This document shows, piece by piece, positions 1 through 3,658 of a stretch of 4,300 nt of DNA. This DNA comes from a virus. Lineage: Duplodnaviria > Heunggongvirae > Uroviricota > Caudoviricetes. The notes beneath the pieces were generated by a model. That model searched no databases and was not told where the DNA came from. It saw only the letters and a list, made by a program, of their open reading frames with translations. The stretch lies in the IMG/VR virus record IMGVR_UViG_2585427761_000013; one strand, given 5' to 3'. The first letter of the stretch is position 1. Every line of letters starts with the position of its first letter. The position numbers and the translations under genes are program-made.

Positions 1-579
1 GCGACGGAGGGTATCTCAGGGATGGTGAATAACATCACGGAGATGCTGAACGGAAATAAAGTGGAATGGCGCAGCTGGGCCTCATCAGTGCTGCAGGAAA
101 TATCAAAAGTTCTTATGAATGCCGCGATTGTCAACGGGATCAAGACGGCGGCAAACAGTATGTCCGGAGCGGGAGGATTTATCGGCAGTATTGGTAGCTG
201 GCTGGGCGGTGCGGTGGCCAATGCAAAAGGCGGGGTGTATACCTCGGCAAACCTGAGTGCGTACAGCAACAGTATTGTGGATACGCCCACGTACTTTGCC
301 TTTGCAAAAGGGGCGGGACTGATGGGGGAGGCCGGTCCTGAAGCCATTATGCCCCTGACCCGGGCGGCGGATGGCTCGCTGGGTGTGCGAGCGGTGGGCA
401 GTATGAACGGCAGTGCAGGTCTGGTGTATTCCCCGGTCTACCATATCGCCATTCAGAATGACGGGACTAATGGCCAGATAGGGCCGGAAGCTGCGGGCAG
501 CCTTGTGCAACTGATTGACCAGCGGGTGCAGGCGGTGATGCTGTCCATGCGACGTGACGGAGGAATGCTGAGTGGCTGA
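1..579 (+). CDS. H: Tail tape-measure protein, C-terminal part (lambda gpH-like); 5' end lies upstream of the window
   Basis: The frame is open from position 1 (no stop before the ATG at 22) and ends at TGA 577-579. The translation (…NGNKVEWRSWASSVLQEISKVLMNAAIVNGIKTAANSMSGAGGFIGS…) resembles the C-terminus of lambda gpH as I recall it. Its position directly upstream of M-L-K-I-J is the canonical gene order. Confidence 0.85.
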   Translation, partial: ATEGISGMVNNITEMLNGNKVEWRSWASSVLQEISKVLMNAAIVNGIKTAANSMSGAGGFIGSIGSWLGGAVANAKGGVYTSANLSAYSNSIVDTPTYFAFAKGAGLMGEAGPEAIMPLTRAADGSLGVRAVGSMNGSAGLVYSPVYHIAIQNDGTNGQIGPEAAGSLVQLIDQRVQAVMLSMRRDGGMLSG

Positions 580-913: not shown

Positions 914-1611
914 TGCAGGATATTCACGAAGAAAGTCTGAACGAGTCGGTTAAATCAGAGCAGTCACCGCGGGTGGTACTCTGGGAAATCGACCTGATGG
1001 TACAGGGCGGTGAGCGGTATTTTTTCTGTAATGAGCTGAATGAAAAAGGGGAGCCGGTCACCTGGCAGGGGCGTAAGTATGAGGCATACCCAATTGACGG
1101 CAGCGGCTTTGAGATGAACGGCCGGGGCAGCAGTGCCCGCCCGTCGCTGACGGTGTCCAATCTGTTTGGCCTTGTCACCGGGATGGCGGAGGACCTGCAG
1201 AGTCTGGTGGGGGCCACGGTGGTCCGCCGCCGGGTGTATGCCCGTTTTCTGGATGCGGTGAATTTCGTTGCGGGCAATCCGTCGGCGGACCCGGAGCAGG
1301 AGCTGAGTGACCGCTGGGTGGTGGAGCAGATGTCGCAGCTGACAGCCATGACGGCCTCGTTTGTGCTGGCCACACCGACCGAGACGGACGGGGCGCTGTT
1401 TCCCGGTCGCATCATGCTGGCGAACACCTGTATGTGGGATTACCGGGGAGATGAATGCGGGTATAACGGTCCTGCGGTGGCGGATGAGTTCGACAACCCC
1501 ACCACGGATATCCGTAAGGACAGATGCAGCAAGTGCATGCGCGGGTGTGAACTGCGCAGGAATGTCGGCAATTTTGGCGGTTTCCTTTCCATTAATAAAC
1601 TTTCGCAGTAA
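913..1611 (+). CDS. L: Minor tail protein L (lambda gpL-like), 232 aa
   Basis: The product (MQDIHEESLNE…VVLWEIDL…GGERYFFCNE…GEPVTWQGR…GNFGGFLSINKLSQ) closely matches lambda gpL as I recall it and is the same length. The start ATG at 913 overlaps the M stop (TGATG), and AGGTGG lies 7 nt upstream. Confidence 0.9.
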   Translation: MQDIHEESLNESVKSEQSPRVVLWEIDLMVQGGERYFFCNELNEKGEPVTWQGRKYEAYPIDGSGFEMNGRGSSARPSLTVSNLFGLVTGMAEDLQSLVGATVVRRRVYARFLDAVNFVAGNPSADPEQELSDRWVVEQMSQLTAMTASFVLATPTETDGALFPGRIMLANTCMWDYRGDECGYNGPAVADEFDNPTTDIRKDRCSKCMRGCELRRNVGNFGGFLSINKLSQ

Positions 1612-1621
1612 ATCCCGGTTT

Positions 1622-2365
1622 ATGACACAGACTGAATCAGCGATTCTGGCGCATGCCCGGCGGTGTGCGCCTGCGGAGTCGTGCGGCTTCGTGGTGAGAA
1701 CGCCGGAGGGGGAGCGGTATATCCCTTGTGTGAATATCTCTGCAGAGCCGGAGGCGTATTTTCGTATTGCACCGGAAGACTGGCTGCGGGCAGAGATGTC
1801 GGGGAAGATTGTGGCGCTGGTTCACAGTCATCCCGGTGGTCTGCCCTGGCTGAGCGAGGCTGACCGGCGGCTGCAGATAAAAAGCGCACTGCCCTGGTGG
1901 CTGGTCAGCCGGGGTGACATTCACAAATTCCGCTGTGTGCCACATCTGACAGGACGGCGCTTTGAGCACGGGGTGACGGACTGTTACACGCTGTTCCGGG
2001 ATGCTTATCATCTGGCGGGGACTGAAATGCCGGATTTTGAGCGTGAGGATGACTGGTGGCGCAACGGTCAGAACCTGTACCTGGACAATATGGAGGCGAC
2101 TGGTTTTTACAGGATTTCCCTGCCTTCCGCACAGCCTGGCGATATCCTGCTGTGCTGCTTTGGCGCATCGGTGGCCAATCATGCCGCCATATACTGCGGC
2201 AACGGTGAACTGCTTCACCATCTGCCTGAACAACTGAGTAAACGGGAGAGGTATTCCGAAAAATGGCAACGACGAACGCATTCTGTCTGGCGTCACCGCC
2301 ACTGGCACGCATCTGCCTTCACGGGGATTTGCAACGATTTGGCCGCCGCCTCAGCCTGTATGTGA
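1622..2365 (+). CDS. K: Tail assembly protein K: N-terminal JAB/MPN (JAMM) metalloprotease-like domain plus C-terminal NlpC/P60 cysteine peptidase domain, 247 aa
   Basis: The ATG at 1622 gives MTQTESAILAHARRC…. A JAMM-type motif H-S-H-x7-S-x2-D is present as HSHPGGLPWLSEAD (residues 68-81). NlpC/P60-like catalytic residues are Cys in GVTDCYTLF and His in ANHAAIY. The upstream part of ORF 1361..2365 overlaps L in another frame and is not coding. Confidence 0.9.
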   Translation: MTQTESAILAHARRCAPAESCGFVVRTPEGERYIPCVNISAEPEAYFRIAPEDWLRAEMSGKIVALVHSHPGGLPWLSEADRRLQIKSALPWWLVSRGDIHKFRCVPHLTGRRFEHGVTDCYTLFRDAYHLAGTEMPDFEREDDWWRNGQNLYLDNMEATGFYRISLPSAQPGDILLCCFGASVANHAAIYCGNGELLHHLPEQLSKRERYSEKWQRRTHSVWRHRHWHASAFTGICNDLAAASACM

Positions 2366-2943
2366 ACACGGCAGCGGAAGCCATCCGGGCGCTGTCGTTA
2401 CAGGTGCCCGGATTTCGCCGTCAGATGAACGAAGGGTGGTACCAGATACGTATTGCCGGTGATGACACGGCACCGGAGGCGGTGTACGCCCGTCTTCACG
2501 AACAGCTGGGTGAGGGAACGGTCATCCACATTGTGCCGCGACTGGCCGGGGCCAGAAAGGGTGGACTGCAGATTGTGCTGGGGGCGGCAGCCATCGTGGG
2601 GTCGTTCTTCACTGCCGGAGGCTCGATGGCGTTATGGGGTACAGCCCTGGCAGCCGGCGGTTTTTCTGCCACCACGATGCTGTTTTCACTGGGGGCCAGC
2701 ATGATACTGGGCGGTGTGGCCCAGATGCTGGCACCGAAGGCAAAAACACCGGATTACCGCGCAACGGATAACGGTAAACAGAACACGTATTTTTCCTCAC
2801 TGGACAATATGATTGCCCAGGGTAACCCGATGCCGGTGCCTTATGGTGAAATGCTGGTTGGCTCCCGCCGTATATCCCAGGACATCAGTACCCGTGATGA
2901 AGGCGGGGACGGAAAGGTCGTGGTTATCGGGCGGCAGGGGTAA
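2263..2943 (+). CDS. I: Tail assembly protein I: N-terminal ubiquitin-like (beta-grasp) domain ending in Gly-Gly, then a Gly/Ala-rich hydrophobic segment and a C-terminal domain, 226 aa
   Basis: The product (…ARICLHGDLQRFGRR…IHIVPRLAGARKGG LQIVLGAAAIVGSFF…QNTYFSSLDNMIAQGN…YGEML VGSRRISQDIST…VVVIGR) matches lambda gpI as I recall it. A GGGAGAGG stretch lies upstream of the ATG at 2263. The first 103 nt overlap the 3' end of K in a different frame, an overlap that lambda also has. Confidence 0.9.
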   Translation: MATTNAFCLASPPLARICLHGDLQRFGRRLSLYVNTAAEAIRALSLQVPGFRRQMNEGWYQIRIAGDDTAPEAVYARLHEQLGEGTVIHIVPRLAGARKGGLQIVLGAAAIVGSFFTAGGSMALWGTALAAGGFSATTMLFSLGASMILGGVAQMLAPKAKTPDYRATDNGKQNTYFSSLDNMIAQGNPMPVPYGEMLVGSRRISQDISTRDEGGDGKVVVIGRQG

Positions 2944-3100: not shown

Positions 3101-3124
3101 AGGTAAGGGGCCCGCCCCTTACCT
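3101..3124 (-). terminator. Perfect 10-bp stem, 4-nt loop hairpin 6 nt downstream of the sodC stop; possible proximal terminator or 3' stabiliser
   Basis: The sequence aggtaagggg-cccg-ccccttacct is a perfect inverted repeat. On the minus strand it is followed by TTATTCC, a weak U-tract. No U-tract follows it on the plus strand. Confidence 0.4.
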
Positions 3125-3130
3125 GACTGA

Positions 3131-3658
3131 TTATTGAATGATGCCGCAGGCCATTCTCGCACCACCACCGCCCAGGGGCTCCGGATGGTCATGATGGTTA
3201 TCACCGCCAGCATGAAGCATGAGAGAACGCCCTTTAATCTCTTTTAATAAGTTCAGTCTCGGGGCCAGGACCGGGTAGTTCGCTTTTCCGTCATGCGTCA
3301 CGAACAGCGCAGGGAGGTCGCCCAGGTGTCCATCCGGAGACCAGGGGCCAAGATGTTTGCCGGTGTTTTTCGGGTCAAAGTGACCGCCAGCCGATAATGC
3401 TGCGACCGGTTTTCCGTCTTTCAGTGCCGGGGCGCAATTTCCTTTTTCGTGCACATGAAAACCATGAATGCCTTCAGACAGAGAGTGAAGGGCTGGTGTG
3501 AACAGCAGACCGTAGGGGGTCTCCTGAATGGTTATTTTTCCAATGCTGACTTCTTTTCCGTCAGCACTGACAAGGTTCATTGGGACTTCCTGTTCTGCTG
3601 CGTATCCGCATGATGCTGCTGTCAGCATGGCAATGGCAGCAATGATTTTACATTTCAT
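3131..3658 (-). CDS. sodC: Periplasmic copper/zinc superoxide dismutase precursor (SodC family), 175 aa, phage-borne cargo gene
   Basis: The minus-strand ATG at 3658 is preceded by GAGGG (complement of 3663-3667) and gives [24 protein letters not shown]…, a signal peptide. Cu,Zn-SOD hallmarks are present: [43 protein letters not shown] and [14 protein letters not shown], including both disulfide cysteines. The stop TAA is at 3131-3133. The longer listed ORF (3131..4165) is only an in-frame run lacking a stop. Confidence 0.9.

Follow-up and report, generated by a model that had tools for sequence, protein, structure and literature searches.

Genes K and I of the viral DNA analyzed here (a stretch of 4,300 nt, referred to as a whole as the window) very probably encode a protease and its substrate, I being a precursor whose ubiquitin-like (Ubl) head is removed by K as a checkpoint of tail-tip assembly while the plug remains. 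The motifs, folds, synteny and family-wide conservation behind this reading were observed in the analyses below, and the processing itself and its timing come from the literature. We infer that this copy behaves as its counterparts in lambda and F-pyocins do, and that the JAB rather than the NlpC/P60 domain of K cuts. The K/I feature is real, was correctly recognized in a first-pass annotation of the sequence, and is already known; the copy found here is ordinary and intact and has no feature that is absent from lambda.

Gene order and relatives of the window

The window is a tail-tip assembly block of a lambdoid prophage, closest to the Stx2a-converting phages of EHEC. The order across it is H (C-terminus), M, L, K, I, sodC (on the other strand) and J, with the tape-measure gene H represented by its last 192 codons on the + strand, in an open frame from base 1 to a stop at 577-579. 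The remaining genes are:

572-913, + strand: gene M (open reading frame)
913-1611, + strand: gene L (open reading frame)
1622-2365, + strand: gene K, predicted tail-tip assembly protease, 247 aa (open reading frame, translation, Pfam)
2263-2943, + strand: gene I, putative tail-tip plug protein precursor, 226 aa (open reading frame, match to lambda gpI)
3131-3658, - strand: sodC, Cu/Zn superoxide dismutase, a moron between I and J
3792 onward, + strand: start of gene J, past the gap after I

The tape measure-M-L-K-I-J synteny, and an I with both the Lambda_tail_I domain and a C-terminal plug, place the pair in the lambda-type K/I module. Among public records, the closest matches are to Stx2a-converting phages and prophages of EHEC O111, O26 and O145; they are 95.9% identical over the whole window and carry exactly the same annotation. 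A sodC moron between I and J is also found in Stx phages and EHEC prophages, and two strong terminator-like hairpins on the - strand (2958-2983 and 3101-3124) lie between I and the 3' end of sodC. Window-like DNA was found in 266 phage records and in 4345 of 5426 complete E. coli genomes (~80%); the E. coli genomes have 14,948 such places in total, and those with any have a median of three. In the translation of L, a cysteine cluster (C-x...-C-G-Y, C-S-K-C-x3-C) can be read at residues about 173-216 (window 1430-1560); in lambda gpL this cluster binds a 4Fe-4S cluster (PMC10721106).

K is a predicted two-domain protease

From its sequence and model, K is predicted to be a JAB/MPN+ metalloprotease followed by an NlpC/P60 cysteine peptidase. 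The features of K, all on the + strand, are:

1628-1936, + strand: K residues 3-105, predicted JAB/MPN+ (JAMM) metalloprotease domain (Pfam Prok-JAB, E=1.6e-15)
1676-1678, + strand: codon of E19 (in P-A-E-S-C-G), probable catalytic Glu of the JAMM site (alignment, conservation)
1823-1864, + strand: JAMM motif H68-S-H70-x7-S78-x2-D81, HSHPGGLPWLSEAD
1952-2293, + strand: K residues 111-224, predicted NlpC/P60 (C40) cysteine peptidase domain (Pfam NLPC_P60, E=7.9e-13)
1982-1984, 2180-2182 and 2216-2218, + strand: codons of the NlpC/P60 triad, C121, H187 and H199, respectively

The motifs of K that the first-pass annotation had quoted are all found where it placed them, namely the JAMM motif at residues 68-81, which is an exact fit to H-x-H-x7-S-x2-D, TPEGERY at 27-33, DCYTLF at 120-125 and NHAAIY at 186-191, and both domains were recovered by Pfam. 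Together with I, which matches Lambda_tail_I at E=5.9e-16, these domain matches put the quoted motifs far beyond chance.

Among 24 homologues of K with 65-95% identity, H68, H70, S78 and D81 are nearly invariant, and these residues are also present in divergent lineages. The upstream Glu of the JAMM site had been assigned to TPEGERY, an assignment that does not hold: E29 and E31 vary among the 24 homologues, whereas A16, P17, E19, S20, C21 and G22 are invariant, and E19 aligns with the catalytic Glu (N-E-A-C-G) of the JAB protein 2kks_A, the sole solved structure that matches the JAB part of K by sequence. The signature P-x-E-[AS]-C-G was found in every intact K of 15 divergent viral loci, which came from two single-protein scans (two further scans of this kind had no matches). 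The catalytic Glu of K is therefore probably E19, judging from these alignments. C121, H187 and H199 are invariant among the same 24 homologues and occur in the divergent loci as well; H199 completes the triad, and in an alignment the His pair of 8idc_E falls at H187 and H199. The invariance of the triad argues that the NlpC/P60 domain is under selection for catalysis. The view that K combines JAB and NlpC/P60 domains with all catalytic residues conserved is thus borne out.

The model of K has a pLDDT of 78.4, with values above 90 across much of the JAB domain. Its structural matches are NlpC/P60 peptidases and JAMM deubiquitinases, among them PfJAMM1 as solved with the Ubl SAMP2. K thus has the E...H-x-H-x7-S-x2-D motif and the predicted MPN fold of JAB/MPN+ proteins, as well as the Cys-His-His triad, in order, and the predicted papain-like fold of the NlpC/P60 family (MEROPS C40).

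Both the closest phage and resequenced lambda have a K of 744 nt in their annotation, as a tail assembly protein. In the lambda reference (J02459/NC_001416), it is annotated as a protein of 199 aa that starts with MSPEDW. Compared with the window, this reference lacks one base in GGAGGC-TATTT, which shifts the frame of the first ~46 codons of K, that of E19 included (the stretch affected is 1130-1290 of the NC_001416 locus compared, corresponding to window 1622-1790). PV340536, LC730321 (48,503 bp), KT232076, imm21, imm434 and DE3 have 302 bases where the reference has 301, and PV340536 annotates a K of 744 nt (247 aa). Since resequenced lambda and lambda-derived genomes have the extra base, the 199-aa lambda K is most likely an artefact of the 1982 sequence. 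Annotations of 199 aa lose part of the JAB domain of K, and those of 190 or 193 aa, discussed below, lose part of the Ubl domain of I. With the one-base error of the reference allowed for, lambda carries the same catalytic residues, and about 80% of complete E. coli genomes have the module; the suggestion that the copy in the window is a particularly useful test case is not supported.

I carries a ubiquitin-like domain, two hydrophobic helices and a plug

The features of I and of the region of its start, all on the + strand, are:

2244-2251, + strand: GGGAGAGG, Shine-Dalgarno-like, 11 nt upstream of the I start (function suggested by sequence)
2263-2365, + strand: K/I overlap of 103 nt, comprising the last 34 codons and stop of K and the first 34 codons of I, which is read in the -1 frame of K
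2305-2553, + strand: I residues 15-97, predicted ThiS/MoaD-type ubiquitin-like beta-grasp domain (Pfam Lambda_tail_I, E=5.9e-16)
2548-2553, + strand: G96-A97, family-invariant end of the ubiquitin-like domain
2554-2565, + strand: R98-K99-G100-G101, di-glycine junction
2566-2733, + strand: I residues 102-157, pair of uncharged hydrophobic helices rich in Gly/Ala, corresponding to H1 and H2 of lambda gpI (composition, hydropathy)
2734-2940, + strand: I residues 158-226, C-terminal plug domain (match to 9e7m, cryo-EM literature)

I matches lambda gpI (8iyk_I) over its full length with E=7.5e-95; lambda gpI is in five PDB entries, and the gpI modelled in 9e7m is matched by I residues 137-223 (E=3.1e-38). 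In lambda, the plug domain shares the lumen of the tail tip with gpJ, gpL and the gpH C-terminus (PMC10721106, PMC12617516), and H1 and H2 have been described as predicted membrane-inserting helices (PMC11101478). As had been noted from the sequence, R-K-G-G is found at residues 98-101 (nt 2554-2565) and is followed by a Gly/Ala-rich hydrophobic segment; the 56 residues of this segment are 39% Gly plus Ala, compared to 21% in the rest of I, and include no charged residue.

A link of the lambda-type I domain to ThiS/MoaD has been reported by iterated PSI-BLAST (Iyer et al., PMC1779556). The AlphaFold2 model of I residues 1-105 (mean pLDDT 70.7, 70-84 over residues 11-95, with disordered ends) has the element order beta-beta-alpha-beta-alpha-beta and matches MoaD, SAMP1, Urm1 and CysO-type proteins. 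A 42-sequence profile of the Ubl domain searched against the PDB sequences at E<=10 found only gpI homologues. From its model, the head of I is predicted to have the beta-grasp fold of ThiS/MoaD-type proteins, and it has a conserved glycine at its C-terminal end. Modelling had been proposed as a check on the first-pass annotation, to be counted against it if the folds were absent; the beta-grasp fold in I(1-105) and the JAB and NlpC/P60 folds in K were all present.

The 103-nt overlap of K and I is annotated identically in lambda and the closest Stx phage, and K/I overlaps of 58-151 nt were found in most divergent loci. Both reading frames of the overlap are conserved; its DNA identity to lambda is 81%, and outside the overlap the identity is 84-86% for K and 67-71% for I. 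In eight database proteins, I is joined to K or to just the NlpC/P60 part of K. A programmed -1 frameshift as the origin of such fusions was considered and rejected, because their junctions are scattered across the overlap, which points to sequencing or assembly frameshift errors or pseudogenes.

Start-site annotation of I varies. In many database entries and in one lambda record, I is 190, 193 or 210 aa long because its start is placed at a GTG at window 2362, which overlaps the K stop codon, or at an internal Met; the lambda record uses the GTG and has an I of 190 aa, and a 2020 review, in terming gpI a 190-residue protein, uses the short form. With such starts, the ubiquitin-like fold would lose its first beta-strands. 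Of the in-frame starts, only the ATG at 2263 retains the first beta-strand, also found in distant homologues, and the long form (226 aa) is supported since these homologues begin just before that strand.

The junction of I and the candidate scissile bond

A search of 1.84 billion cluster representatives gave 3178 relatives of I at E<=0.001, and positions were counted in 88 diverse, roughly full-length relatives plus the query. Among these 89 sequences, P92 is Pro in 85, G96 is Gly in 84 and position 97 is Ala or Ser in 76, whereas G101 is Gly in 68 and G100 in only 42. G96 is present at every divergent locus examined. Residues 100-101 are GG in all close relatives; in divergent loci they read AG, SP, SS, EG or WG, and the adjacent K always has a full JAMM site. 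The N-terminal domain of I had been said to end exactly in RKGG. While the motif does lie there, it marks one possible boundary; the Pfam Lambda_tail_I domain stops at residue 97, and the end defined by Pfam and the invariant glycine is G96-A97. Likewise, cleavage after the Gly-Gly had been attributed to earlier comparative work, but what the 2006 paper describes is a single C-terminal glycine of high conservation (PMC1779556).

In our own alignment of the tails, V-P-R-L-A-G-A of I would pair with F-P-P-V-T-G-G of MoaD and L-R-L-R-G-G of ubiquitin, so that G96-A97 would be the counterpart of the terminal di-glycine. As the profile search of the PDB gave only gpI homologues, this register rests on the fold matches and the tail-motif alignment. 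Given that G96 is invariant and that G100-G101 is replaced in lineages whose K has a full JAMM site, the exact bond cleaved by K probably lies within residues 96-102. Mutagenesis and mass-spectrometry designs for I need to cover both candidate bonds, G96-A97 and the one after the di-glycine.

Glycine pairs were also noted in the tape measure. In all lineages examined, R-x-G-G and then two hydrophobic residues lie within a few residues of the tape-measure stop (window 550-570); these ends (RRDGGML in the window, MRDGGLF in lambda, and RPGGML, RNGGIL and others) resemble the I junction. This end was rejected as a cleavage site, being intact in lambda cryo-EM (residues 818-849; PMC10721106, PMC12617516). 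A second K substrate at A-N-A-K-G-G-V-Y of the window tape measure (compare A-R-K-G-G-L-Q of I) was rejected as well: lambda H does not have this motif, which is therefore a chance match in a Gly-rich region.

Probable processing of I by K

Iyer, Burroughs and Aravind had put forward in 2006 that K combines JAB with NlpC/P60, that I has a Ubl domain and that K processes I (PMC1779556), and K and I are indeed the pair discussed by these authors, as the first-pass annotation had stated. Its remark that the biochemistry is still poorly characterized is out of date. A summary of an October 2025 bacteriophage conference (PMC12908700) reports, from a talk by A. Davidson, that gpK cleaves gpI in lambda, and assigns this cleavage to the "deubiquitinating domain" of gpK; no full paper or preprint on gpK cleaving gpI was found among the literature searched. 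In lambda virion and tail cryo-EM, gpI was modelled only from residue 135 (PMC10721106) or 134 (PMC12617516), and, according to PMC11101478, from residue 101 in 8IYK/8IYL. In the lumen of the tip, the C-terminal portion of gpI is present as a trimeric plug, and the gpH C-terminal helix is held by this plug. gpK was not detected in lambda virions by mass spectrometry (PMC10721106) and is in no cryo-EM map (PMC10721106, PMC12617516). In the F-pyocin, the N-terminus of PA0640 was found in stalled tips and was absent from mature particles, and deletion of the gpK homologue PA0639 led to tubes without tips; the authors did not assign the removal to a protease, and the N-terminus of PA0640 expressed alone was removed by host proteases (bioRxiv 10.64898/2026.02.24.707460).

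These observations are consistent with a mechanism in which I would be made as a four-part precursor, consisting of a ThiS/MoaD-like Ubl, a short Gly-containing junction, two hydrophobic helices and a C-terminal plug, with K as a non-structural assembly enzyme. The precursor would join J and L in the nascent tip, and the JAB/MPN+ zinc site of K (E19, H68, H70, S78 and D81) could bind the Ubl in the way that ubiquitin is bound by a deubiquitinase. When I has taken its place together with J and L, K would cut the junction between G96 and L102. The Ubl head would then be discarded and K would leave, with mature I as a trimeric plug holding the tape-measure C-terminus. Removal of the Ubl may thus act as an assembly checkpoint, upon which the tip docks to the tape measure and tube and the tube is nucleated.

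The role of the second domain of K needs separate consideration. K appears to be cytoplasmic and non-structural, which makes a peptidoglycan substrate for the NlpC/P60 domain unlikely. As the triad is strictly conserved, and K is never found in the virion or outside the cytoplasm, a second, protein-directed cleavage during tail assembly is suggested; that the triad serves such a cleavage, or that the Ubl is cut at G96-A97, is a tentative proposal that we regard as doubtful. [quoted passage not shown]

An improbable variant is that the NlpC/P60 domain frees the Ubl, leaving the JAB domain with Ubl binding alone or with a different role. Among eukaryotic deubiquitinases, those with a papain fold are the most common. 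C121, H187 and H199 are invariant in all homologues examined, the absence of K from virions leaves this domain with no obvious peptidoglycan substrate, and some phage K homologues have only NlpC/P60, which might process the Ubl (Iyer et al., PMC1779556). However, the JAMM site of K is equally invariant, JAB-Ubl pairs without NlpC/P60 recur in many bacterial operons (PMC1779556), and the conference summary credits the deubiquitinating domain (PMC12908700). Cleavage by the JAB domain is therefore the reading that we retain.

It is harder still to believe that I is unprocessed, its N-terminal domain being flexible and invisible to cryo-EM and K being only a chaperone. Cryo-EM alone cannot separate disorder from removal, both of which are raised by the F-pyocin authors, and the single gpI peptide (9.9% coverage) obtained by mass spectrometry of lambda virions is uninformative. 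By comparison, the F-pyocin peptide coverage shows the N-terminus in stalled tips and its loss in mature particles (bioRxiv 10.64898/2026.02.24.707460), cleavage in lambda is directly stated in the conference summary (PMC12908700), and the two full catalytic sites strictly conserved in K are hard to square with a pure chaperone. Least probable of all is a K whose NlpC/P60 domain is a cell-wall hydrolase used at infection, its adjacency to I being incidental: the best structural matches of this domain are the peptidoglycan endopeptidases CwlO, MepS and LytE, and the wall-cutting enzyme of lambda has been noted as unidentified (PMC11101478), but K has no signal peptide or membrane segment, and gpK, found in no virion mass spectrometry or cryo-EM map (PMC10721106, PMC12617516), cannot act at entry.

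Comparison with known systems

Removal of the Ubl head of I by K, as favored here, has its closest parallel in lambda gpK and gpI, with which the window shares the order H-M-L-K-I-J, the 103-nt K/I overlap, all catalytic residues and the G96-A97...G100-G101 junction. K is 83% identical to lambda over the 199 annotated residues, and I is 68% identical over its full length. The junction reads A-R-K-G-G in the window and A-K-S-G-G in lambda, and sodC lies between I and J in the window, unlike in lambda. The F-type pyocin of P. aeruginosa is a bacteriocin rather than a phage, and its PA0640 (PDB 25vf chain 9) is matched by the Ubl-domain profile (E=4e-12) and by full-length I (E=5.6e-14). The N-terminal domain of PA0640 is removed during assembly and PA0639 is needed for tip assembly; the junction of PA0640, G-S-K-Q-S-G, has no di-glycine.

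What is of interest is the family as a whole, known since 2006 and currently being worked out in lambda and F-pyocins, to which the window contributes a single further intact copy. The family would be a rare example of a virus that builds a checkpoint into its assembly from a ubiquitin-like domain and a protease of the deubiquitinase type, and it is relevant to the prokaryotic roots of ubiquitin signalling. P. furiosus JAMM1-SAMP2 (5lda), H. volcanii JAMM1-SAMP, Mec+/CysO and QbsD/QbsE likewise combine a JAB/MPN+ protein with a ThiS/MoaD-type beta-grasp protein that has a C-terminal glycine; going by the models, PfJAMM1 is the nearest structural match of the JAB domain of K, and MoaD, SAMP1 and CysO-type proteins are the nearest to the head of I. 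The Ubls of these prokaryotic pairs are free proteins used in sulfur transfer or E1 conjugation, whereas that of I is the N-terminal part of a structural precursor and appears to be discarded. No E1 or E2 gene was found in the window. Bil, with its deubiquitinase BilC, and CBASS Cap3 act in host anti-phage defence with E1 and E2 enzymes; in contrast, the K/I pair, without sign of conjugation, is encoded by the phage and appears to be directed at assembly.
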